Shown here: one piece after another, positions 5,101 to 56,601 of the stretch | Position numbering within the stretch: position 1 is the first letter of the stretch | Layout: every line of letters starts with the position of its first letter | Assembly: GCF_056746865.1 (NCBI RefSeq) | Contig: NZ_CM163382.1 | Length of the DNA stretch: 64,000 nt | Strand: one strand, 5' to 3' | Notes under the pieces: generated by a model | What the model saw: the letters and a program-made list of their open reading frames with translations, nothing else | What the model was told of the DNA's origin: nothing | Database searches by the model: none | Program-made: the position numbers and the translations under genes

Positions 5101-6812
5101 TGAGCGAAAAACATCCAGGGCCTTTAGTGGTCGAAGGAAAACTGACAGACGCCGAGCGCATGAAGCTTGAAAGCAACTACCTGCGCGGCACCATTGCGGA
5201 AGATTTAAACGACGGTCTGACCGGCGGCTTTAAGGGCGATAACTTTCTGCTGATCCGCTTCCACGGCATGTATCAACAGGATGACCGCGACATTCGCGCC
5301 GAACGTGCTGAACAGAAGCTGGAGCCGCGCCACGCGATGCTGTTGCGCTGCCGTCTGCCGGGTGGCGTGATCACCACCAAACAGTGGCAGGCGATCGATA
5401 AATTTGCCGGTGAAAACACCATTTATGGCAGCATTCGCCTGACCAACCGCCAGACGTTCCAGTTCCACGGCATTCTGAAAAAGAACGTCAAACCGGTGCA
5501 CCAGATGCTGCACTCGGTCGGTCTTGATGCGCTGGCGACTGCTAACGACATGAACCGTAACGTACTCTGCACCTCGAACCCTTACGAGTCGCAGTTGCAC
5601 GCGGAAGCATATGAATGGGCGAAGAAAATCTCTGAACATCTGCTGCCGCGTACCCGCGCGTATGCGGAGATCTGGCTCGATCAGGAAAAAGTCGCCACCA
5701 CCGATGAAGAACCGATCCTCGGTCAGACTTATTTGCCGCGTAAATTCAAAACCACGGTAGTGATCCCGCCGCAGAACGATATCGATCTGCACGCCAACGA
5801 CATGAACTTCGTGGCGATCGCCGAAAACGGCAAGCTGGTGGGCTTTAACCTGCTGGTGGGCGGTGGGCTTTCCATCGAGCACGGCAACAAGAAAACCTAC
5901 GCCCGCACGGCGAGTGAGTTTGGTTATCTGCCGCTGGAGCATACGCTGGCGGTGGCAGAAGCCGTCGTGACGACTCAGCGCGACTGGGGTAACCGTACCG
6001 ATCGTAAAAATGCCAAAACCAAATACACGCTGGAGCGCGTGGGGGTTGAGACGTTTAAAGCGGAAGTGGAGCGTCGCGCGGGGATCAAATTTGAACCGAT
6101 CCGTCCATATGAGTTCACCGGACGCGGCGATCGTATTGGCTGGGTTAAAGGCATTGATGATAACTGGCACCTGACGCTGTTTATCGAAAATGGTCGCATC
6201 CTTGATTATCCTGGGCGTCCGCTGAAAACCGGCCTGCTGGAGATCGCGAAGATCCACAAAGGTGATTTCCGCATTACGGCGAACCAGAATCTGATCATCG
6301 CCGGAGTGCCGGAAAGCGAGAAAGCGAAGATCGAGAAGATCGCCAAAGAGAGCGGGTTAATGAATGCCGTCACGCCACAGCGTGAAAACTCAATGGCCTG
6401 CGTGTCATTCCCGACTTGCCCGCTGGCGATGGCCGAAGCGGAGCGTTTCCTGCCGTCTTTTATCGACAACATCGATAATTTAATGGCGAAACATGGTGTC
6501 AGCGATGAGCATATCGTGATGCGTGTAACAGGCTGCCCGAACGGTTGTGGTCGCGCGATGCTGGCGGAAGTGGGCCTGGTGGGTAAAGCGCCGGGTCGCT
6601 ACAACCTGCATCTTGGCGGCAACCGCATTGGGACACGTATCCCACGGATGTATAAAGAAAACATCACCGAACCGGAAATCCTGGCGTCGCTTGATGAACT
6701 GATAGGGCGCTGGGCGAAAGAGCGCGAAGCGGGTGAAGGCTTCGGCGACTTTACGGTGCGTGCGGGCATCATTCGCCCGGTGCTCGATCCGGCGCGCGAT
6801 TTGTGGGATTAA
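5100..6812 (+). CDS. cysI: Sulfite reductase [NADPH] hemoprotein beta subunit
   Basis: 570 aa ORF with siroheme/4Fe-4S Cys motifs ([26 protein letters not shown]); start overlaps the cysJ stop at 5100. Confidence 0.95.
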
Positions 6813-7676: not shown

Positions 7677-7883
7677 GCGAGCAGCATTCCTGATTTTAAA
7701 CGTGAACGCCGCTGGAAGAATTATCAGGTATAGAATGGCGTTGGGTGCTTGAGGCTGTCTGGCGTTAAGCATTCGCGAGGTTCCAGATGGACAAAAGCCC
7801 CAGGCGATATTTCTATCAACCTGAGGCCAGCGTTCGAACCTAAGCAATTCGAATGTTAGTCTCTTCTTTGCAGGGAGGCAAGA

Positions 7884-8036
7884 CATGCTGACAAAATATG
7901 CCCTTGTGGCAATCATCGTACTGTGTTGTACAGTACTGGGATTCACGCTGATGGTAGGCGACTCGTTGTGTGAGTTGAGTATCAGAGAACGTGGTATGGA
8001 GTTTAAGGCAGTTCTCGCTTACGAATCGAAGAAGTA
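7884..8036 (+). CDS. hokX: Hok/Gef-family small membrane toxin (type I toxin-antitoxin locus)
   Basis: 50 aa ORF ([50 protein letters not shown]) with a hydrophobic N-terminus and conserved Cys, typical of Hok proteins; SD ggagg 6 nt upstream. Absent from the ORF track because it is under 60 aa. Confidence 0.6.
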
Positions 8037-33596: not shown

Positions 33597-33718
33597 ACCT
33601 CAGCGTCCTCTACTGTAGTGGCTGTGCCAGCCCGTCGAGGTATACGGTTTTTCGGGAGCGACCCTAGACACAGCTTTTTCTTTCGTCGCTCAAAGTCTAC
33701 TACTGTATACTCAACCAG

Positions 33719-34972
33719 TCATCCACATTTTCCGAACTTGCCATGCACCACGTTGCCGCCCTGTTCCAGTGAGTCCATATAGTCGGCGTACCACTGGAGC
33801 ATCTCGCGCCGCCCGTCCAGATATTGCGCATGATTGTACGTGCCACGAATTGAGTTCTTATCAACGTGTGCAAGCTGCGTTTCTATCCACGCGGTGTTAT
33901 AGCCCTGCTCATGTAAAATCGTGCTCATCGTGTGCCGGAACCCATGACCAGTAACGCGCCCAGAATAGCCAATACGACGAATAAGCACGTTCATCGCCAT
34001 TTCACTCATCGGCTTACTGTGCTGGATTCGACCAGGGAAAATAAACTGATACTGCCCCGTCATGTGTTTTAACTGTTCCAGAATAGCGATCGCCTGTTCT
34101 GAAAGCGGCACACAATGAGGACGGCGCATCTTCATTCGTTCTTTAGGCACTTCCCACAAACGATTATCAAAATCGATCTCCTGCCATTCTGCCTGTCGTA
34201 ATTCCCCTGGCCGGAGCCCTGTCAGAATCAATAATCGCATACCCAGCTTGACGATCTGGCTTCCGGTGTACGTATTAAGAACGCGGAAAAATTCCGGCAG
34301 TTCGTCGGCCTTCAAATAGGCATAATGCTCTTTTTTGTGTGGAGCAAATGCGCTTGCCAGATCTGGTGCGGGGTTATATTCAGCGCGTCCGGTGATGATT
34401 GCGTACCGGAACACCTCGCCGCATCGCTGGCGAACCTTACGCAATTTTTCGGTCGCCCCACGGTCATTAAGACGGGAGAGAACCGCAAGCAACTCCATTG
34501 GCTTAATTTCTGCGATCGGCCTGCCGCCAATGTACGGAAAAACGTCTTTTTCAAACGTCTCGATCATTTCCTCGGCGTATGACGATGACCACCTGTCGAT
34601 CCGCTTTTCATACCATTCGCGAGCGATACCCTCAAAAGTATTGCCAAATTTGCTCGCCTGTTCTCGCTTTTGAGCTTTTCTGGCCTCACTTGGATTTATA
34701 CCACCAGCAAGAAGCCTTTTAGCCTCATCCCTTGCCGCTCTGGCATCAGACAGAGACACATCAGGGTACACGCCCAACGACAACATTTTGGGCTTTCCTG
34801 CAAATCTGTAACGTAGTCGCCACCCTTTCGAGCCGTTCGGCTCAATGAGTAACGAAAGCCCGTTACCGTCATTGAGTGTATAAGCCTTTTCTTTCGGCTT
34901 CGCGCGCCTGATAGCAAGGTCTGAAAGCAGCATGTGTATAGCTCCAAAAAATAAATTTTGTCCTATACGCAT
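33719..34972 (-). CDS. int: Tyrosine site-specific integrase (P4 / CP4-57 IntA family)
   Basis: 417 aa with an N-terminal arm-binding-like domain and a C-terminal catalytic region (HGFRHT, LAHVDKNSIRGTYNH); adjacent to the tRNA 3' end. The true start may be the internal MLLSDLAIRR. Confidence 0.9.
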   Translation of the reverse strand: MRIGQNLFFGAIHMLLSDLAIRRAKPKEKAYTLNDGNGLSLLIEPNGSKGWRLRYRFAGKPKMLSLGVYPDVSLSDARAARDEAKRLLAGGINPSEARKAQKREQASKFGNTFEGIAREWYEKRIDRWSSSYAEEMIETFEKDVFPYIGGRPIAEIKPMELLAVLSRLNDRGATEKLRKVRQRCGEVFRYAIITGRAEYNPAPDLASAFAPHKKEHYAYLKADELPEFFRVLNTYTGSQIVKLGMRLLILTGLRPGELRQAEWQEIDFDNRLWEVPKERMKMRRPHCVPLSEQAIAILEQLKHMTGQYQFIFPGRIQHSKPMSEMAMNVLIRRIGYSGRVTGHGFRHTMSTILHEQGYNTAWIETQLAHVDKNSIRGTYNHAQYLDGRREMLQWYADYMDSLEQGGNVVHGKFGKCG

Positions 34973-35097: not shown

Positions 35098-35171
35098 TGG
35101 AGCGGGCGAAGGGAATCGAACCCTCGTATAGAGCTTGGGAAGCTCTCGTTCTACCATTGAACTACGCCCGC
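35098..35171 (-). tRNA. glyU: tRNA-Gly (anticodon CCC)
   Basis: Reverse complement reads GCGGGCGTAGTTCAATGGTAGAACGAGAGCTTCCCAAGCTCTATACGAGGGTTCGATTCCCTTCGCCCGCTCCA: cloverleaf-compatible, anticodon loop CTTCCCAAG, T-loop GGTTCGATTCC, 3' CCA. Confidence 0.9.
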
Positions 35172-35249: not shown

Positions 35250-36026
35250 TCAGCATTTTGGCTTGCTGCCCTGAGGCGGCAAGTAACGCAGCGGATCAAT
35301 TGCCGTAGCACGGTAACGAATCTGGAAATGCAGGCGAACCGATGCCGCATCAGTGCTCCCCATAGTGGCGATTTTTTGCCCAGCCTTCACGCTTTGCCCA
35401 TTATTTACCAGCATCGTGTCATTATGGGCGTAAGCCGTAATGTAATCTTCACTGTGTTTAATCATGATGAGATTACCGTAGCCACGCAGCTGGTTGCCCA
35501 CATACACCACCTTTCCTGCACCCGCGGCGTAAATAGGTGTACCCCGTGGAGCTGAGATATCAATCCCTTTATTGCCGCCATCAGCTGTCGAATACGGCAT
35601 GATAACTTTCCCTGTCGTTGGCCATAACCAACAACGTTGCCCTACTGGCGGCCAGGAAGATTTCGGTACTGCTGATGACGGTGTAACCGATGCGGTTTTG
35701 GTCGTTGATTTGGCGGTTGATTTACGTGTACTGCTACTTTTCGCCCCACCCAGTTTTAGTTTCTGACCAACTTCAATGGTGTAAGGGGGGGAAATGCCGT
35801 TCAGTCGCGCCAGCTCTTTTACGCTGGTTCCCGTGGTGCGCGAAATACGATATAGCGTATCCCCCCGTTTCACGGTGTAAACGGAGCCGGAATACGTTCC
35901 TGTATCGGATGATTTGCTACCCGAGCAGCCCGCCAAAAGCAGTCCAACCGATAACAACATCACGATACCCAGAGATTTTTTATTCAGGCGTCCCGCACTC
36001 AAAATCTTTCCTCGCTTAAAAAACAA
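35250..36026 (-). CDS. ygeR: LysM-domain M23 peptidase lipoprotein
   Basis: Lipoprotein signal (LLLAGCSG), LysM (YTVKRGDTLYRISRTTGTSVKELARLNGI) and M23 motifs (HLHFQIR). Confidence 0.8.
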   Translation of the reverse strand: MFFKRGKILSAGRLNKKSLGIVMLLSVGLLLAGCSGSKSSDTGTYSGSVYTVKRGDTLYRISRTTGTSVKELARLNGISPPYTIEVGQKLKLGGAKSSSTRKSTAKSTTKTASVTPSSAVPKSSWPPVGQRCWLWPTTGKVIMPYSTADGGNKGIDISAPRGTPIYAAGAGKVVYVGNQLRGYGNLIMIKHSEDYITAYAHNDTMLVNNGQSVKAGQKIATMGSTDAASVRLHFQIRYRATAIDPLRYLPPQGSKPKC

Positions 36027-36346
36027 GACGCCATATCATAGCAGCCAGCCTCTGGATACCCAATCTCTTGCTTCTGGAAAAACGCGGTAATAGAGAAAGA
36101 GGTTAATTTCATTTGGCAAAGGGAAGTATCATCAGCAAAATATTCGCTGCAGAGGTATCGAATTTCCTGACTTTTTTACCCTATTTCCCATCCTGATGCG
36201 TAATAATCCTGATTTATCACATTGATTTTATCGCCACTCATATTGATACGTATCACTGCCCCTATTCAGGGTCCTGTTTCGTATCATATCTGTGTTTTTT
36301 TAACATCATCACACTTCCTTCCTCCCTTAACGCTTATCGTCGTTTC

Positions 36347-36362
36347 TGGCGTAAATCTTGCC
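36347..36362 (+). promoter_or_regulatory. Candidate sigma54 (-24/-12) promoter upstream of xdhA
   Basis: TGGCGTAAATCTTGCC matches the TGGC-N7-TTGC consensus about 95 bp upstream of the xdhA start; a sigma54 activator (ygeV) is encoded nearby. Confidence 0.4.
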
Positions 36363-36456
36363 TGCTTAGACTAAATCTTTGCCATAAGAACCAAATGTTC
36401 AAATCGAGGGGATTTCTATGGAAGCGCGGGAAGCAACCGCTACAGGTGAATCATGC

Positions 36457-38715
36457 ATGCGCGTAGATGCCATTGCTAAGGTCACCGGGCGGGCACGATA
36501 TACTGACGATTATGTTATGGCGGGCATGTGTTACGCGAAATATGTACGTAGCCCTATCGCACATGGTTATGCCGTAAGTATTAATGATGAACAAGCCAGA
36601 AGTTTACCGGGCGTACTGGCGATTTTTACCTGGGAAGATGTGCCTGATATCCCATTCGCTACAGCTGGGCATGCCTGGACACTTGACGAAAACAAGCGCG
36701 ATACCGCCGATCGTGCCCTGCTAACTCGCCATGTTCGTCACCATGGTGACGCCGTTGCCATCGTCGTGGCCCGTGATGAACTCACGGCAGAAAAAGCGGC
36801 GCAATTGGTCAGCATTGAGTGGCAAGAATTACCCGTTATCACCACCCCAGAAGCGGCGCTGGCTGATGACGCTGAACCAATCCATAATGGCGGCAATTTA
36901 CTAAAACAAAGCACGATGACGACGGGCAATGTCCAACAAACAATCGATGCCGCCGACTACCAGGTACAGGGGCACTATCAGACGCCGGTCATTCAACATT
37001 GTCACATGGAAAGCGTGACATCGCTGGCATGGATGGAGGATGACTCGCGAATTACCATCGTTTCCAGCACCCAGATCCCGCACATTGTTCGCCGTGTGGT
37101 TGGTCAGGCGCTGAATATTCCCTGGTCATGCGTACGAGTCATCAAACCGTTTGTCGGTGGCGGTTTTGGTAATAAACAGGATGTACTGGAAGAGCCAATG
37201 GCAGCATTCCTGACCAGCAAGCTTGGCGGCATTCCGGTGAAAGTTTCCCTTAGCCGTGAAGAGTGTTTCCTCGCAACCCGTACCCGCCACGCTTTTACTA
37301 TTGACGGGCAAATGGGCGTGAACCGCGACGGAACATTGAAAGGTTATAGTCTGGATGTTCTGTCTAACACCGGCGCTTATGCATCTCACGGGCACTCCAT
37401 CGCTTCTGCAGGGGGGAATAAAGTCGCTTACCTTTATCCTCGTTGTGCCTACGCTTACAGTTCAAAGACCTGCTATACCAACCTCCCCTCGGCTGGTGCG
37501 ATGCGTGGTTATGGCGCGCCACAAGTCGTATTTGCCGTTGAGTCTATGCTTGATGACGCCGCGACAGCGTTAGGTATTGATCCTGTTGAAATTCGTTTAC
37601 GCAACGCCGCCCGCGAAGGAGATGCTAATCCGCTCTCGGGCAAACGTATTTACAGCGCAGGGTTGCCGGAGTGTCTTGAAAAAGGCCGGAAAATCTTTGA
37701 ATGGGAAAAACGCCGTGCAGAATGCCAGAACCAGCAAGGCAATTTACGCCGCGGCGTTGGCGTCGCCTGTTTTAGCTACACCTCTAACACCTGGCCTGTC
37801 GGCGTAGAAATTGCTGGCGCGCGCCTGTTGATGAATCAGGATGGAACCATCAACGTACAGAGTGGTGCCACGGAAATCGGCCAGGGTGCCGACACCGTGT
37901 TCTCGCAAATGGTGGCAGAAACCGTGGGGGTTCCGGTCAGCGACGTTCGCGTTATTTCAACACAAGATACCGACGTTACGCCGTTCGATCCCGGTGCATT
38001 TGCCTCGCGCCAGAGCTATGTTGCCGCGCCCGCGCTGCGCAGTGCGGCACTGTTATTAAAAGAGAAAATCATCGCTCACGCCGCTGTCATGCTACATCAG
38101 TCAGCGATGAATCTTACCTTGATAAAAGGCCATATCGTGCTGGTTGAACGACCGGAAGAGCCGTTAATGTCGTTAAAAGATTTGGCGATGGACGCTTTCT
38201 ACCACCCTGAACGCGGTGGGCAGCTCTCTGCCGAAAGCTCCATCAAAACCACCACTAACCCACCAGCGTTTGGCTGTACCTTTGTTGATCTGACGATCGA
38301 TATTGCGCTGTGCAAAGTCACCATCAACCGCATCCTCAACGTTCATGATTCGGGCCATATTCTTAATCCGCTACTGGCAGAAGGTCAGGTACACGGCGGA
38401 ATGGGAATGGGCATTGGCTGGGCGCTATTTGAAGAGATGATCATTGATGCGAAAAGCGGCGTGGTCCGTAACCCCAACCTGCTGGATTACAAAATGCCGA
38501 CCATGCCGGATCTGCCACAACTGGAAAGCGCGTTCGTCGAAATCAATGAGCCGCAATCCGCATACGGACATAAGTCACTGGGTGAGCCACCAATAATTCC
38601 TGTTGCCGCTGCTATTCGTAACGCGGTGAAGATGGCTACCGGTGTTGCAATCAATACACTGCCGCTGACGCCAAAACGGTTATATGAAGAGTTCCATCTG
38701 GCAGGATTGATTTGA
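36457..38715 (+). CDS. xdhA: Xanthine dehydrogenase molybdenum-binding subunit
   Basis: ORF 36418..38715; start at MRVDAIAKVTGRARYTDD gives 752 aa, a molybdopterin-binding aldehyde-oxidase/xanthine-dehydrogenase-type protein. Confidence 0.9.
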   Translation: MRVDAIAKVTGRARYTDDYVMAGMCYAKYVRSPIAHGYAVSINDEQARSLPGVLAIFTWEDVPDIPFATAGHAWTLDENKRDTADRALLTRHVRHHGDAVAIVVARDELTAEKAAQLVSIEWQELPVITTPEAALADDAEPIHNGGNLLKQSTMTTGNVQQTIDAADYQVQGHYQTPVIQHCHMESVTSLAWMEDDSRITIVSSTQIPHIVRRVVGQALNIPWSCVRVIKPFVGGGFGNKQDVLEEPMAAFLTSKLGGIPVKVSLSREECFLATRTRHAFTIDGQMGVNRDGTLKGYSLDVLSNTGAYASHGHSIASAGGNKVAYLYPRCAYAYSSKTCYTNLPSAGAMRGYGAPQVVFAVESMLDDAATALGIDPVEIRLRNAAREGDANPLSGKRIYSAGLPECLEKGRKIFEWEKRRAECQNQQGNLRRGVGVACFSYTSNTWPVGVEIAGARLLMNQDGTINVQSGATEIGQGADTVFSQMVAETVGVPVSDVRVISTQDTDVTPFDPGAFASRQSYVAAPALRSAALLLKEKIIAHAAVMLHQSAMNLTLIKGHIVLVERPEEPLMSLKDLAMDAFYHPERGGQLSAESSIKTTTNPPAFGCTFVDLTIDIALCKVTINRILNVHDSGHILNPLLAEGQVHGGMGMGIGWALFEEMIIDAKSGVVRNPNLLDYKMPTMPDLPQLESAFVEINEPQSAYGHKSLGEPPIIPVAAAIRNAVKMATGVAINTLPLTPKRLYEEFHLAGLI

Positions 38716-38725
38716 GGATAACATC

Positions 38726-39604
38726 ATGTTTGATTTTGCTTCTTACCATCGCGCAGCAACCCTTGCCGATGCCATCAACCTGCTGGCTGACAACCCGCAG
38801 GCCAAACTGCTCGCCGGTGGCACTGACGTACTGATTCAGCTCCACCATCACAATGACCGTTATCGCCATATTGTTGATATTCATAATCTGGTGGAGCTGC
38901 GGGGAATTACGCTGGCGGAAGATGGCTCACTACGTATCGGCTCTGCAACGACATTTACCCAGCTCATTGAAGATCCTGTAACTCAACGTCATCTCCCAGC
39001 GTTATGTGCTGCGGCCTCATCCATTGCCGGACCGCAGATCCGTAACGTCGCTACCTACGGTGGAAATATTTGCAACGGTGCTACCAGCGCAGATTCTGCC
39101 ACGCCAACGCTAATTTATGACGCGAAACTGGAGATTCACTCCCCGCGCGGTGTTCGTTTCGTCCCGATTAATGGCTTTCACACTGGGCCGGGCAAAGTGT
39201 CTCTTGAGCATGACGAAATCCTTGTCGCCTTTCATTTTCCGCCCCAGCCGAAAGAACACGCGGGCAGCGCGCATTTTAAATATGCCATGCGCGACGCAAT
39301 GGATATTTCAACGATTGGCTGCGCCGCACATTGCCGACTGGATAACGGCAATTTCAGCGAATTACGTCTGGCATTTGGTGTTGCCGCGCCAACGCCGATT
39401 CGCTGCCAACATGCCGAACAGACTGCACAAAATGCGCCATTAAACCTGCAAACGCTGGAAGCTATCAGCGAATCTGTCCTGCAAGATGTCGCCCCGCGTT
39501 CTTCATGGCGGGCCAGTAAAGAGTTTCGTCTGCATCTCATCCAGACGATGACCAAAAAAGTGATTAGCGAAGCCGTCGCCGCGGCGGGGGGAAAATTGCA
39601 ATGA
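38726..39604 (+). CDS. xdhB: Xanthine dehydrogenase FAD-binding subunit
   Basis: 292 aa CO-dehydrogenase-flavoprotein-like ORF; synteny. Confidence 0.9.
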
Positions 39605-40080
39605 ATCACAGCGAAACAATTACCATCGAATGCGCCATTAACGGGATCCCTTTTCAGCTTCACGCCGCACCAGGCACGCCGCTCTCGGAATTACTCCGCG
39701 AACAAGGACTGCTAAGTGTCAAACAAGGGTGCTGCGTGGGTGAATGTGGTGCCTGTACGGTGCTGGTCGACGGCACAGCAATAGACAGTTGCTTATACCT
39801 TGCCGCCTGGGCTGAAGGAAAAGAGATCCGCACGCTGGAAGGTGAAGCGAAAGGCGGAAAACTTTCTCATGTTCAGCAGGCTTATGCGAAATCCGGCGCA
39901 GTGCAGTGCGGGTTTTGTACGCCTGGCCTGATTATGGCTACCACAGCAATGCTGGCGAAACCACGCGAGAAGCCATTAACCATTACGGAAATTCGTCGCG
40001 GACTGGCAGGAAATCTTTGTCGCTGCACGGGGTATCAGATGATTGTAAATACAGTTCTGGATTGCGAGAAAACGAAGTAA
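39601..40080 (+). CDS. xdhC: Xanthine dehydrogenase iron-sulfur subunit
   Basis: 159 aa with 2Fe-2S motifs ([12 protein letters not shown] and CGFCTPG). Confidence 0.9.
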
Positions 40081-40119: not shown

Positions 40120-41898
40120 TTATGTGTTTAACAACTCATATTTCTTAATCTTGCGATAGAGCGTAGCAATGCCGATGCCCAGTTCATCAGCAACTTGCTT
40201 CTTGCTGTTATGACGTGAAAGCGCCTCGCGGATCATTTGCTTTTCCATCTCCTCCAGCGCCGTGCCGCCCGCATCATCGAGTGCCAGGTGCGCCTCGCTG
40301 ACCTCTGTTACATCACTTTGCTCCGTTGTGCCATTATTCAGCAGATTTGGTGGCAATAGCGTGCTGTCGATAACTTCACCTGAAGGAACAACGTTAACCA
40401 GATATTCCATCAAATTGCTTAACTCGCGCAGGTTTCCGGGCCAACGATGCTTACGCAATATTTCGACGACATCGGGAGCAATGCCAGGATAAACCGATCC
40501 CAGACGACGGGTATGCAGATGTAAAAAGTAATGCACCAGTAGTTCAATATCTTCCTGACGTTCACGCAGCGGTGGCAGAGTTATCGGGATAACATTAAGT
40601 CGGTAGAAGAGATCTTCGCGGAATTTACCTTCGGCAATGAACTGGGCCAAATTCTGGTTAGTTGCAGAAATGATGCGAATGTCGACTTGTATTGGGCTAC
40701 TGGCACCAATCGGCAGAATTTCACGCGCCTCAATAGCGCGCAGTAATTTAGCCTGCAACATTAATGGCATATCACCTATTTCATCGAGAAACAGCGTGCC
40801 CGTATTCGCCGCCTGAATCAACCCTGTTTTACCGTTGGCAGAAGCGCCAGTAAATGCGCCTTTAACATAACCGAACAGTTCGCTCTCCAGAAGCTGCTCC
40901 GGAATCGCGGCACAGTTGATAGCAATAAAGGGTTTATTCCGTCTTCCGCTCAACTTATGGATTGCACGGGCGACAACTTCTTTACCCGTGCCGCTTTCAC
41001 CAACCACCATAACGCTGGATGGGCTGGGTGCAATACGGCTAATGAGTCGTTTTAATTGCCGCATAACACGGCACTCGCCAACCAATTGTTCAATATGCGG
41101 TTCATCAGGTGCATTTGCTACAGAAAAACTGGTATGCGATTGGTGAAACGCCATTAAAAATAATTGTCGGCCCTGAATGTTATGCAATTGACCAATGATT
41201 AATTCACTTTTATCGTCCCACGAAACAATATGCTGCATATGTCCATGGGTAAAATTACTCTCAAATGTTAATGGTCTGAAACGGATAGGTTTCCCAATAA
41301 TATTATTTTGTACAACACCAAGTGTTTTTAAGGCAGTCTGATTAACAAACTGAACCCGACTTTCATCATCAACAACTAATACGCCCTGATCCATATTATC
41401 GATCATGGTCGCGAATATTTTACTGATGTTATCTCCTGGCCCCTGATCCTCCAGAAGTTTCGAAACAAAAATGGTGGATATATGGCGAACATAATCAGAA
41501 AATTCGCGTAAATTATCACTGATATGCTCTTGTTGCTCGTGGGTAACGGCAATCAAACTTATCACCCCAACACAACGATCCTGTAAAATGACAGGCGTAC
41601 CCAGAAATGCTTTTTCGCGGCAATTTTCTTTACTATCGCAACCTTCACAAAGGGGATCGAAGCGAGACTGTGTCACAACTTTTTCAGTTTTCGTTTCCAG
41701 GACGTGGCGGAGCAGGCGTGAGTTGCCGCTCAACTGGCGACCAAGAAACTTCCCATACGCGCCCGTTCCGGCGACGCGACACAAGTTTTCATCAACGATC
41801 TCAACCTCAAGCTGCAAAACGCTGGCAAGCATTCTGGCAAAACGCTGAATTGTCGGTTGAATTTGCATCAATACTGACTGCGTAGTAGCAAGCTCCAT
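40120..41898 (-). CDS. ygeV: Sigma54-dependent transcriptional activator
   Basis: 592 aa; AAA+ Walker A GESGTGKE, the GAFTGA sigma54-contact motif, and a C-terminal HTH. Confidence 0.9.
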   Translation of the reverse strand: MELATTQSVLMQIQPTIQRFARMLASVLQLEVEIVDENLCRVAGTGAYGKFLGRQLSGNSRLLRHVLETKTEKVVTQSRFDPLCEGCDSKENCREKAFLGTPVILQDRCVGVISLIAVTHEQQEHISDNLREFSDYVRHISTIFVSKLLEDQGPGDNISKIFATMIDNMDQGVLVVDDESRVQFVNQTALKTLGVVQNNIIGKPIRFRPLTFESNFTHGHMQHIVSWDDKSELIIGQLHNIQGRQLFLMAFHQSHTSFSVANAPDEPHIEQLVGECRVMRQLKRLISRIAPSPSSVMVVGESGTGKEVVARAIHKLSGRRNKPFIAINCAAIPEQLLESELFGYVKGAFTGASANGKTGLIQAANTGTLFLDEIGDMPLMLQAKLLRAIEAREILPIGASSPIQVDIRIISATNQNLAQFIAEGKFREDLFYRLNVIPITLPPLRERQEDIELLVHYFLHLHTRRLGSVYPGIAPDVVEILRKHRWPGNLRELSNLMEYLVNVVPSGEVIDSTLLPPNLLNNGTTEQSDVTEVSEAHLALDDAGGTALEEMEKQMIREALSRHNSKKQVADELGIGIATLYRKIKKYELLNT

Positions 41899-42374
41899 AG
41901 CTTTACCTTCCAGACTTACTTAAAAGTCGATCATTGAAGACGTTGATGGTTCATAGATCATGATGATATTAACTCAGGCGAAATTGGCTTTGATAAAAAC
42001 ATAAGATTTTTATCACTTTCTAATGAAATTATGGAAGAGATATCACATTTCTATATCAATATGAGAATTACGGCGGTGAGTTTATCAAACTGACGAGGGA
42101 TAACCTGCCCCTTTATCTTATTTCTGATACTTAGCAGCAAATAAATAACGCGATAAAAAAAGCCAAACGTTTTCGTATTTTACAAACAACCAGAAGCTGG
42201 CATCAATTTGTGATCAACCCCACACATTACCCGTCAAATTAGTCTTTTGCAGCCGCTTGGATAATTCTGGCATAGTTATTGTTAGTCCCAGGTATAGCTG
42301 TGAAAAGACCAATCACTTTTGGCAAATCACAGTGAAATAAACCTCTTTGCCTGTCATTCCACTACCGGGACTTT

Positions 42375-50398: not shown

Positions 50399-51169
50399 CT
50401 AATTCACAAATCTGCGCGCGATTGCAGGATGTTCTTGTATATCGCCCAGCCAGATTGCCTCTACGTCGTGTTGTTGCAGCGGTTGAAGGAGCTCGCTTTG
50501 CGCAATCGCATTCTCACATTGAGAAAAACGGTTAATGAACCAGACTCGCCGACAACCTTGCGGTACGTTTTTAAATGCGCCCTGAGGGTGGCGAACCAGC
50601 GCAACGAGATCGCTCAGTTGCAAGGTTGCATCAGGTGTTAACCCGGTAATATCAGCAAACTGCGACCAGCGATGGACATTTTCTGTGCTCACTTTCGCGC
50701 CCAAAATATGTCCTCCCATCACAGCAATCACGCAGCAACTGCTTTTGGGTATGCAAGGTTCGTGCTCATCAGGCGCTTTTAACGGCATTCCACGCGAGCC
50801 ATCTGCTTCAATGAGAATTACGTCACACTCTGGTCGTTGCACCAGTGCATCAATCGCTTCTGGCGTAAATCCCTGCACTTTTCCCTGGTTCGCTTTCCAG
50901 CTGTGAAAACAAAATGAAATGGGGGATGTAAGAGACGCATGAGGAAGCATGGCGGGATCACGACAGAAAACCACGGGCCAGTGAGACGTTGGCATAAACA
51001 TATGTGTCGTCGTAGTGATTAACACACGCCTGCCGCTAGCCTGGAGCAGTTCTGCCAGCCAAAAAAGCAAGCTGGTTTTTCCCCCAGCCCCAACAACAGA
51101 AATCACAGTGGGACGTTTCTGCGCGCCTAAATCAATGAATAATGCCGATGGGTCAACTATACTTTTCAC
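50399..51169 (-). CDS. yqeC: Putative selenium-dependent hydroxylase accessory protein
   Basis: 256 aa with a P-loop-like VVGAGGKTS; synteny. Confidence 0.8.
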   Translation of the reverse strand: MKSIVDPSALFIDLGAQKRPTVISVVGAGGKTSLLFWLAELLQASGRRVLITTTTHMFMPTSHWPVVFCRDPAMLPHASLTSPISFCFHSWKANQGKVQGFTPEAIDALVQRPECDVILIEADGSRGMPLKAPDEHEPCIPKSSCCVIAVMGGHILGAKVSTENVHRWSQFADITGLTPDATLQLSDLVALVRHPQGAFKNVPQGCRRVWFINRFSQCENAIAQSELLQPLQQHDVEAIWLGDIQEHPAIARRFVN

Positions 51170-51850: not shown

Positions 51851-52171
51851 AAAACGTAGTTAAACGATTGCGTTCAAATATTTAATCCCTCCAGCACTCT
51901 TTATCATAATGATAAGGAATCACTGATTTTGAGAAAAGAGAAAAAGTGATAAATGGGCTGGCAATAATAATTTTCAGGAGTGATTTTAATTCTCATTTGG
52001 CACCTGTGAGTTCATTCACAAAAAGCTCCTAAGTTTCGAGCCGCCTCACATTTTTTTATATTTCCCGCCAAACCTGGCAAGAGTGGTGCGATTGTTGCTC
52101 TATCCCCCTAAACCACCGGATTTCTCAACACCGGTCACTCAATGATATCTGTATAAGCTAAGGAGAGGGTT

Positions 52172-55272: not shown

Positions 55273-56601
55273 ATGTTGATTCTGAAGAATGTCACCGCAG
55301 TGCAGTTACACCCGGCGAAAGTGCAGGAAGGCGTTGATATCGCCATCGAAAATGATGTGATTGTCGCTATCGGCGATGCCCTGACGCAACGCTACCCCGA
55401 TGCCAGCTACAAAGAGATGCATGGTCGGATTGTGATGCCGGGAATTGTCTGCTCGCACAACCATTTTTACTCGGGACTGTCCCGCGGAATTATGGCAAAC
55501 ATCGCCCCCTGCCCGGATTTCATCTCAACGCTGAAAAATCTCTGGTGGCGACTCGATCGCGCCCTTGATGAAGAGTCGCTCTATTACAGCGGACTGATTT
55601 GTTCCCTGGAAGCGATTAAGAGCGGATGTACATCGGTTATCGATCACCATGCCTCTCCGGCGTATATCGGCGGGTCGCTCTCCACATTGCGCAACGCATT
55701 TTTAAAAGTTGGCCTGCGCGCGATGACCTGTTTTGAAACTACTGACCGTAACAACGGCATCAAAGAGTTGCAGGAAGGTGTAGAAGAAAACATCCGCTTC
55801 GCCCGTCAGATTGATGAGGCGAAGAAAGCAGCAACCGAGCCGTATCTGGTGGAAGCACATATCGGCGCTCACGCGCCGTTTACCGTGCCGGATGCCGGTC
55901 TGGAGATGCTGCGTGAAGCCGTGAAAGCCACAGGTCGTGGTTTGCATATTCACGCTGCGGAAGACCTTTACGACGTTTCCTACAGTCACCACTGGTACGG
56001 CAAAGACCTGCTGGCACGACTGGCGCAATTCGATCTCATCGACAGCAAAACGCTGGTCGCTCATGGGCTGTACTTGTCGAAAGATGACATCGCCCTACTC
56101 AATCAGCGCGATGCGTTCCTGGTGCATAACGCCCGTTCAAACATGAACAACCATGTCGGCTACAACCATCACCTTAGCGACATCCGCAATCTGGCGTTGG
56201 GAACTGACGGCATTGGTTCGGACATGTTTGAAGAGATGAAATTTGCCTTCTTTAAACATCGCGATGCGGGTGGTCCGCTGTGGCCTGACAGTTTTGCCAA
56301 AGCACTGGCTAACGGCAACGAACTGATGAGCCGCAACTTTGGCGCGAAATTTGGCCTTCTGGAAGCCGGTTACAAAGCCGATTTAACCATTTGCGATTAC
56401 AACTCGCCGACACCGCTGCTTGCAGACAATATCGCCGGGCATATCGCTTTCGGTATGGGCTCAGGCAGCGTTCATAGCGTGATGGTCAATGGCGTGATGG
56501 TCTATGAAGACCGTCAGTTTAACTTCGATTGCGATTCCATTTATGCGCAAGCCAGAAAAGCCGCTGCCAGTATGTGGCGTCGGATGGATGCGCTGGCATA
56601 A
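55273..56601 (+). CDS. ssnA: Amidohydrolase-family protein
   Basis: 442 aa with the metal-binding HxH motif (CSHNHFYSG). Confidence 0.85.
   Translation: MLILKNVTAVQLHPAKVQEGVDIAIENDVIVAIGDALTQRYPDASYKEMHGRIVMPGIVCSHNHFYSGLSRGIMANIAPCPDFISTLKNLWWRLDRALDEESLYYSGLICSLEAIKSGCTSVIDHHASPAYIGGSLSTLRNAFLKVGLRAMTCFETTDRNNGIKELQEGVEENIRFARQIDEAKKAATEPYLVEAHIGAHAPFTVPDAGLEMLREAVKATGRGLHIHAAEDLYDVSYSHHWYGKDLLARLAQFDLIDSKTLVAHGLYLSKDDIALLNQRDAFLVHNARSNMNNHVGYNHHLSDIRNLALGTDGIGSDMFEEMKFAFFKHRDAGGPLWPDSFAKALANGNELMSRNFGAKFGLLEAGYKADLTICDYNSPTPLLADNIAGHIAFGMGSGSVHSVMVNGVMVYEDRQFNFDCDSIYAQARKAAASMWRRMDALA

Follow-up and report, generated by a model that had tools for sequence, protein, structure and literature searches.

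The locus

The DNA considered here, referred to below as the window, is a stretch of 64,000 nucleotides from contig NZ_CM163382.1 (RefSeq assembly GCF_056746865.1). It is part of the chromosome of an Escherichia coli strain other than K-12, with 99.4% identity to strain SCU-105, and it houses a cluster of operons for the xanthine dehydrogenase of gut bacteria and for their reductive uric-acid pathway, which has recently been worked out (PMC12507026). The operon xdhABC starts behind actS; immediately after xdhC, on the other strand and 3.8 kb from the xdhA promoter, lies ygeV, the gene of a sigma-54 activator, and further operons begin with ygeW and ygfK (Table 1). The element in question is a −24/−12 promoter of the kind recognised by sigma-54 RNA polymerase, which lies in the actS–xdhA spacer (36030–36456, counted to the xdhA start codon of the K-12 type) and is most likely opened by YgeV.

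For comparison with relatives, one genome per species was scanned with a YgeY probe, and the 80 loci found were taken with 10-kb flanks. They range from Citrobacter to Aeromonas, Photobacterium, Shewanella and some Betaproteobacteria. Genes in these loci were mapped by tblastn, and alignments were built of the regions upstream of xdhA, of ygfK (11 taxa) and of ygeW.

The sigma-54 promoter of xdhABC

An initial annotation, made from the letters of the window, had proposed TGGCGTAAATCTTGCC at 36347–36362 as a sigma-54 promoter that fits the GG-N10-GC rule. The string lies exactly there, and its GG and GC doublets are exactly ten bases apart, as in the extended consensus YTGGCACGrNNNTTGCW. The rule itself carries no information: the window holds 594 GG-N10-GC matches against 601 ± 22 expected from dinucleotide shuffles. 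The pattern TGGC-N7-TTGC is no more telling, with 4 occurrences where 4.7 are expected. Since both patterns occur at chance frequency, they were replaced by a weight matrix of 17 positions, derived from 38 intergenic sigma-54 sites determined by chromatin immunoprecipitation sequencing (ChIP-seq; Bonocora 2015, PLoS Genet 11:e1005552, PMC4591121, Table 1), from which the four sites of this cluster had been left out. Over both strands (127,968 positions), the xdhA site at 36346–36362 ranks 20th with 10.3 bits. Shuffled sequences contain about 12 matches of at least 10.3 bits per window, and the expectation by chance on the sense strand is about 0.04 in each of the three regions upstream of xdhA (391 nt), ygeW and ygfK. 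The xdhA match is thus suggestive by itself, not decisive; that all three spacers beside a sigma-54 activator gene should hold sense matches is very unlikely by chance.

Conservation settles the question. The pattern CTGGCGTA-N4-TTGCY is the best matrix match in all ten orthologous xdhA loci with usable upstream sequence, the window included, which span five genera (Escherichia, Citrobacter, Atlantibacter, Morganella and Buttiauxella), and it sits 86–98 nt before the K-12-type start in each of them. In the alignment, the columns C320–A327 and T332–C335, which form the CTGGCGTA and TTGC blocks, are invariant, while the spacer between them varies (AAATC, AATTC, AAATT, AAAAA, TTTA, CTTC, CATC). 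Invariant blocks around a changing spacer are what selection for the −24 and −12 contacts leaves behind, and this conservation shows the predicted site to be a real sigma-54 promoter. Of 5,426 complete E. coli genomes, 5,326 have the region. Among five diverse E. coli strains the GG and TTGC are unchanged, one strain has a T-to-A change at the base before the GG, and the substitutions also avoid the palindromes upstream that are described below.

The same site is already in print for K-12. Zhao 2010 (NAR 38:1273, PMC2831329, Table 2) lists xdhA (tttcTGGCGTAAATCTTGCCTGctta) and ygfK (aaccTGGCAAGAGTGGTGCGATtgtt) as new members of the sigma-54 regulon, with strings identical to the two of the initial annotation. 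Expression of xdhA rose 4.9-fold and that of ygfK 2.1-fold on induction of sigma-54, and they fell 2.1-fold and 2.4-fold, respectively, on deletion of rpoN (Zhao 2010). Occupancy by sigma-54 was reported as site OS29, CTGGCGTAAATCTTGCC, with a fold above threshold of 11, a motif centred 6 bp from the ChIP-seq peak and a flag for experimental confirmation in EcoCyc (Bonocora 2015). The published K-12 promoter is the same 17-mer at the same position relative to xdhA and in the same orientation: the same object in another strain of E. coli, from which the window differs only at flanking bases. The proposal of a sigma-54 promoter before xdhA is therefore borne out, by the conservation in ten loci and by identity with a published promoter and ChIP-seq site, and, the 17-mer having been published, the promoter must count as already known.

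Start codon, leader and the case for sigma-70

It is most likely that translation of xdhA starts at ATG 36418 and not at ATG 36457, the start of the K-12 type. The upstream ATG (765 amino acids) is invariant in eight taxa and follows closely on a purine-rich, Shine–Dalgarno-like stretch, whereas the downstream one (752 amino acids) is CTG, TTA or TTG in Morganella and Buttiauxella. In RefSeq annotations, too, the start is at 36418, and the NCBIfam XdhA model covers residues 5–765. In the literature the distance from the promoter is given as 84 nt, which refers to the K-12 start codon and corresponds to 36457. By the convention of Bonocora 2015, in which transcription is taken to start 19 nt after the centre of the motif, the xdhABC transcript would begin at 36373, with a leader of about 45 nt before the ATG at 36418. 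The idea of a riboswitch or another known RNA in this leader was discarded, as no Rfam family matches there; in the whole window, Rfam families are found only for a tRNA, sok and int-alpA.

These data also bear on the possibility that the xdhA match arose by chance, or binds sigma-54 without productive effect, and that xdhABC is transcribed from a sigma-70 promoter. Sequence alone gives the match a p of only about 0.04, and bound sigma-54 sites need not be promoters (Bonocora 2015). Moreover, equal or better matches lie inside genes, for example in ssnA (56011–56027, plus strand, sense, 12.1 bits) and in xdhB (39424–39440, minus strand, antisense, 11.4 bits); neither is among the published high-stringency ChIP-seq sites, and both were for this reason treated as chance. 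The key bases of the xdhA site are, however, kept in five genera at a fixed position and in the sense orientation, 45 nt before a conserved start codon, and they are preceded by enhancer-like palindromes. Expression of xdhA depends on rpoN (Zhao 2010, PMC2831329). Sigma-70-like matches in the actS–xdhA spacer are at chance level, the single weak one (36113–36141) lying within about 100 bp (36060–36165) that are missing or unaligned in the other genera compared. A match confined to an E. coli-specific stretch is unlikely to be a conserved promoter, and a sigma-70 promoter was rejected as the driver of xdhABC. Transcription of xdhABC from sigma-70, with an idle or fortuitous sigma-54 match, is accordingly very improbable.

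The ygfK promoter and its register

Upstream of ygfK, the initial annotation had placed a second candidate, TGGCAAGAGTGGTGC at 52075–52089, which it considered weaker than that of xdhA. The string is found exactly there and a sigma-54 promoter does lie at that place, but the register chosen is nine bases upstream of the motif that is conserved (52083–52099). Nor is the ygfK site the weaker of the two: the conserved register scores 12.1 bits (rank 5) against 10.3 bits for xdhA, and its ChIP-seq signal above threshold is 26-fold against 11-fold.

The two registers are both in the literature, 9 nt apart, and both strings are present in the window: site OS31 of Bonocora 2015 is GTGGTGCGATTGTTGCT and the motif of Zhao 2010 is TGGCAAGAGTGGTGCGAT. 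It might be that the promoter is the TGGCAAGAGTGGTGC register, as picked by Zhao 2010, or that E. coli uses the two overlapping registers side by side. Scored as 52074–52090, the upstream register reaches 11.05 bits (rank 13), close to the 12.1 bits of its neighbour, and the ChIP-seq data do not separate sites 9 bp apart, as the centre of the ygfK peak is 18 bp from the motif centre. The comparison across genera favours the register of Bonocora 2015, which MEME had picked from the ChIP-seq peaks (PMC4591121). This register is the best matrix match in 50 of the 52 ygfK upstream regions scanned, and the block CTGG[TC]NNGAWTGTTGCT that matches it is invariant in the alignment of 11 taxa. The upstream register is the runner-up in E. 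coli loci only; its TGGC is kept in no other genus and is lost already in Citrobacter amalonaticus, the closest of the loci outside Escherichia. Furthermore, only in the 52083–52099 register do the candidate enhancer site at −202 and the CRP-type sites at −67.5 and −97.5 fit the positions seen at xdhA and ygfT. Use of the upstream register, alone or together with the other, is hence unlikely, and its score is probably a chance second match.

YgeV and a candidate enhancer site

The initial annotation had suggested that YgeV, encoded within the cluster, could control these operons. The idea is plausible and well supported, although the support is indirect: the domains of the protein, the co-expression of the genes and a palindrome shared by their upstream regions. 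In Pfam and NCBIfam scans, YgeV (592 amino acids) comprises an N-terminal region, a PAS domain, a Sigma54_activat AAA+ domain (8e-71) with its GAFTGA loop at residue 347, an AAA lid and a Fis-type helix-turn-helix (HTH_8). The same scans gave no match to a receiver domain, and none to any Pfam family for residues 1–160. These residues carry a cluster of cysteines, C84-x2-C87-x5-C93, as well as C39 and C109, and they may form a metal- or ligand-sensing module. The protein is named an 'orphan response regulator' in one paper, and it is the IsrR of a virulence study of enterohaemorrhagic E. coli, in which data on its DNA site are absent. ‘UacR’ was considered as another name for YgeV and set aside, the literature having only clinical uses of that abbreviation. 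A decomposition of RNA sequencing data into iModulons places xdhABC, ygeWXY, hyuA, ygfK, ssnA, ygfM, xdhD, ygfT and uacT in a single module of co-expressed genes; the paper describing it cites a prior study for reduced expression of ygfT in a ygeV mutant.

The upstream regions of these genes have the palindrome TATCA-N3-TGATA in common. With up to two mismatches it occurs upstream of xdhA in 10 of 10 loci, of ygeW in 72 of 75 and of ygfK in 51 of 52. The numbers of sites (22, 130 and 64) compare with about 2, 14 and 11 in shuffled sequences, with a peak at the spacer of 3 nt. Their positions, between −130 and −235 from the predicted start site, are conserved, and they recur across genera at the three promoters within the window; before ygfK, Edwardsiella and Aeromonas likewise have a perfect palindrome at −202. 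A fourth case comes from the uacT–ygfT spacer of SCU-105 (record L082), where TCTCATATTGATA at 5326–5338 lies at −198 relative to the sigma-54 site published for ygfT, which ties ygfT to the same regulon. Among the 9,216 palindromes with the structure 5-N(0–8)-5, all of which were enumerated, only TATCA-N3-TGATA was present in all four E. coli regions (xdhA, ygeW, ygfK and ygfT), and in shuffled sets two to three regions were reached at most. Other spacers were examined and dismissed: enrichment with 0–2, 4, 5 or 7 nt is far below that with 3 nt, and the matches with 6 nt (52 of 75 ygeW loci, 37 of 52 ygfK loci) are most commonly shifted N3 palindromes. On this comparative evidence, TATCA-N3-TGATA is the probable recognition site of YgeV. 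Judged by titles and passages, the literature searched that mentions ygeV appears to describe no DNA site for the protein.

A separate block in the ygeV–ygeW spacer, GATACTA at 41960–41972, is conserved as well. It reads TAGTAT on the ygeV strand, where it may serve as the −10 element of a promoter for ygeV itself.

The xdhA site might also be a real sigma-54 promoter that is fired by another enhancer-binding protein, such as NtrC when nitrogen is limiting, in which case YgeV would act at ygeW and ygfT alone. Such a protein would be in keeping with a genomic SELEX study (systematic evolution of ligands by exponential enrichment) whose NtrC targets include one near the junction of xdhB and xdhC, and with the nitrogen-limited induction of a promoter inside yqeC in the same cluster. 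It does not account for the palindrome common to ygeW, ygfK and ygfT, which lies before xdhA at a distance typical of enhancers and does not vary between genera, nor for the membership of xdhABC in the co-expression module of the other YgeV-linked genes. The palindrome typical of NtrC has the consensus TGCACC-N5-GGTGCA; nothing of this type was noticed in the conserved blocks, where no scan aimed at NtrC sites was made. YgeV is therefore preferred as the activator at xdhA, and another enhancer-binding protein in its stead is decidedly unlikely.

CRP-type elements in the presumed place of IHF

Between the palindromes and the −24/−12 elements lie matches to the CRP consensus TGTGA-N6-TCACA, scored by mismatch counts over ten positions. 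The element upstream of xdhA has a weak left half; its right half, TCACA at 36309–36313, is invariant in the alignment, and nine of the ten xdhA loci share a match with at most two mismatches in one position bin. At ygeW, about two thirds of the 75 loci have a match in the bins from −70 to −80. Two elements precede ygfK: the perfect core at −97.5 has a match in its position bin in 29 of 52 loci, and the element at −67.5, which repeats the position seen at xdhA and contains a conserved TTnGA..TCAC block, in 32 of 52. The weak left halves of the xdhA element and of this proximal ygfK element lack one or both G residues. The centres at −67.5, −77.5 and −97.5 differ by whole helical turns, and these positions are found again in other genera. 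For the ygeV–ygeW spacer, a native Crp-binding site has been reported, together with glucose repression of urate breakdown (PMC12507026).

The loop regions of xdhA, ygeW and ygfK contain no IHF consensus WATCAANNNNTTR with up to one mismatch; the single IHF-consensus match coincides with enhancer palindrome 1. The CRP-type element would thus appear to occupy the position in the loop where IHF might otherwise be expected.

Other sigma-54 sites of the cluster

The best sigma-54 match of the whole window, which the initial annotation lacked, belongs to ygeW and is divergent from ygeV. Nearly all of the 78 loci scanned have kept it, those of Aeromonas, Photobacterium and Shewanella as well as those of Escherichia; in a few loci of Betaproteobacteria it is weak or missing. 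In the ChIP-seq study it is site OS30, with a fold above threshold of 3 (Bonocora 2015).

A further promoter missing from the initial annotation lies inside yqeC and drives yqeB. The window matches the published site IS34 exactly. Mutation of IS34 greatly reduced the binding of sigma-54 and made YqeB undetectable, and the promoter is induced by nitrogen limitation (Bonocora 2015, PMC4591121), so that a different activator may control it. There is no TATCA-N3-TGATA at enhancer distance upstream of this promoter; TCTCACATTGAGA at 50512–50524 lies downstream. Outside the window, the ygfT site (OS32 of Bonocora 2015) is TATGCCCATTTATTGCA, at 5503–5519 of the SCU-105 record L082, and is without the GG doublet.

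Table 1. Genes, promoters and candidate regulatory elements of the cluster, in window coordinates.
Feature	Position	Strand	Sequence	Placement and evidence
actS/ygeR	35250–36026	−		Open reading frames; RefSeq annotation of matching record
Candidate YgeV enhancer site 1	36215–36227		TATCACATTGATT	Centred −152 at xdhA; invariant TATCA block in xdhA alignment
Candidate YgeV enhancer site 2	36236–36248		ACTCATATTGATA	Centred −131 at xdhA, 21 bp from site 1; invariant TCA..TGA.A block in xdhA alignment
CRP-like element (TTTTA-N6-TCACA)	36298–36313		TTTTAACATCATCACA	Centred −67.5 at xdhA; 8/10 positions, weak left half
xdhABC sigma-54 promoter	36346–36362	+	CTGGCGTAAATCTTGCC	GG 36348–36349, GC 36360–36361; matrix, conservation, published identity
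Predicted xdhABC transcription start	36373	+		Motif centre + 19 nt
xdhA	36418–38715	+		Open reading frames; RefSeq annotation
xdhB and xdhC (downstream operon genes)	38726–40080 (xdhC end 40080)	+		Open reading frames; annotation
ygeV	40120–41898	−		Pfam and NCBIfam scans, GAFTGA motif
Candidate YgeV enhancer site	42054–42066		TATCAATATGAGA	−234 from ygeW start site; invariant block in ygeW alignment
Candidate YgeV enhancer site	42083–42095		TATCAAACTGACG	−205 from ygeW start site; invariant TATCA...TG block in ygeW alignment
CRP-type site (TGTGA-N6-CCACA)	42209–42224		TGTGATCAACCCCACA	Centred −77.5 from ygeW start site; 9/10 consensus positions
ygeW (ygeWXY-hyuA...) sigma-54 promoter	42267–42283	+	CTGGCATAGTTATTGTT	Matrix rank 1, 15.0 bits; OS30; SELEX
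ygeW, then ygeX/dpaL, ygeY, hyuA, arcC	from 42375	+		Open reading frames; RefSeq annotation
yqeB, yqeC		−		Open reading frames; RefSeq annotation
mocA		+		Open reading frames; RefSeq annotation
sigma-54 promoter inside yqeC, drives yqeB	50752–50768	−	TGAGCACGAACCTTGCA	Exact match to IS34 of Bonocora 2015
Candidate YgeV enhancer site, perfect palindrome	51902–51914		TATCATAATGATA	−202 from ygfK start site; ygfK alignment, position recurrence
Perfect CRP consensus core (TGTGA-N6-TCACA)	52005–52020		TGTGAGTTCATTCACA	Centred −97.5 from ygfK start site; 10/10 positions, conserved block in ygfK alignment
CRP-like element (TTCGA-N6-TCACA)	52035–52050		TTCGAGCCGCCTCACA	Centred −67.5 at ygfK; 8/10 positions, weak left half
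ygfK register of the initial annotation	52075–52089	+	TGGCAAGAGTGGTGC	Overlaps the 52083–52099 site; prediction of Zhao 2010
ygfK-ssnA... sigma-54 promoter, conserved register	52083–52099	+	GTGGTGCGATTGTTGCT	Matrix, conservation in ygfK alignment, OS31
ygfK, then ssnA, ygfM, xdhD	from 52172	+		Open reading frames; RefSeq annotation

On its other side, actS borders on DNA that is apparently mobile. It extends from about 7700 to 35200, up to the tRNA-Gly gene beside actS (35101–35171, minus strand), so that about 850 bp separate an integration hotspot from the beginning of the xdhA control region. Genes annotated in the matching record from about 15 kb onwards include a tyrosine integrase (33719–34972, minus strand), a DUF927 protein, an antirepressor, and ProQ/FinO-like and PerC-like genes. 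The int-alpA RNA found by Rfam at 33607–33674 (minus strand) is within this annotated mobile stretch, and the sok antitoxin RNA at 7743–7900 is outside it.

A model for the activation of xdhABC

As a whole, the observations are best explained if 36346–36362 is the −24/−12 promoter of xdhABC, recognised by sigma-54 RNA polymerase and most likely opened by YgeV, a reading to which a probability of roughly 90% may be given. The sigma-54 holoenzyme would bind the promoter as a closed complex that needs help to open the DNA. YgeV most likely binds both TATCA-N3-TGATA palindromes, at −152 and −131, and would contact the polymerase by looping of the intervening DNA, probably assisted by a bend at the conserved T-tract and the CRP-like element at −67.5. 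Opening would then proceed through the GAFTGA loop and hydrolysis of ATP, with transcription predicted to begin near 36373, about 45 nt before the conserved ATG. The layout of palindrome, CRP-type element and −24/−12 promoter recurs at ygeW, ygfK and ygfT, which points to the genes for purine and uric-acid breakdown as one YgeV/sigma-54 regulon, probably also under catabolite control.

A number of points weigh against this reading. The xdhA site is a below-average match, with GCGTAA in place of GCACG and a C as its last base, and the start at 36373 is a prediction that follows from the convention adopted. The changes in expression that Zhao 2010 measured with rpoN are small (about 2- to 5-fold), and most of the other predictions of that study were judged to be false positives by Bonocora 2015 (PMC4591121). 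Genomic SELEX with purified RpoN holoenzyme detected the ygeV/ygeW spacer but neither xdhA nor ygfK. The conflict between orders is unexplained: the matrix ranks ygeW above ygfK and ygfK above xdhA, the ChIP-seq signal is highest at ygfK, then at xdhA and then at ygeW, and SELEX found only ygeW. Within the literature searched, neither YgeV binding nor ygeV dependence was found for xdhA, to which YgeV is linked by association. Finally, the xdhA element at −67.5 is without both G residues of the left CRP half-site and may for this reason not bind CRP. As for entries that merely share a name, the xdhA of Pseudomonas putida in a 2025 sigma-factor paper belongs to a different organism and was put aside as irrelevant.

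Relation to known enhancer-dependent systems

The classical enhancer-dependent sigma-54 promoter is glnAp2, which is activated by NtrC. The proposed xdhA system resembles it in the GG at −24 and GC at −12, in an AAA+ activator with a GAFTGA loop and a Fis-type helix-turn-helix, in palindromes more than 100 bp upstream and in the looping of DNA that would bring these together. It differs from it in three respects. YgeV is without the receiver domain of NtrC and has instead an unassigned N-terminal region and a PAS domain; the putative enhancer motif is TATCA-N3-TGATA; and the loop holds a CRP-type element where there is no IHF consensus.

Another parallel is the prpBCDE promoter with its activator PrpR, which is sigma-54 dependent and depends positively on CRP. 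Here too a catabolic operon has a sigma-54 promoter, a divergently encoded activator that is not a response regulator and, at xdhA putatively, catabolite control by CRP. In contrast with prpBCDE, a role of CRP at xdhA and ygfK is suggested by conserved sequence alone, and the literature mentions CRP only for the ygeV–ygeW spacer.

What the analysis adds to the published promoter is modest: the register at ygfK, the ygeW and yqeC promoters, a probable YgeV palindrome, the CRP-type elements and the upstream start of xdhA. Tentatively, two of these may be joined into a single proposal, namely that TATCA-N3-TGATA is the YgeV site of a compact regulon, undescribed in the papers searched, and that CRP-type elements hold the architectural place of IHF; the odds for both being true together fall a little short of even.

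Implications for purine and urate breakdown

If the proposal holds, the YgeV regulon would consist of xdhABC, ygeWXY-hyuA, ygfK-ssnA-ygfM-xdhD and ygfT, and would have been kept from Escherichia to Aeromonas, Photobacterium and Shewanella. Catabolite repression would then be wired directly into the sigma-54-dependent, anaerobic breakdown of purines and urate. The ygeV–ygeW control region has already been replaced in engineered probiotic strains to raise urate breakdown. The register at ygfK, the probable YgeV palindrome and the CRP-type elements would be useful for engineering of this kind, and for finding the signal that switches the pathway on.

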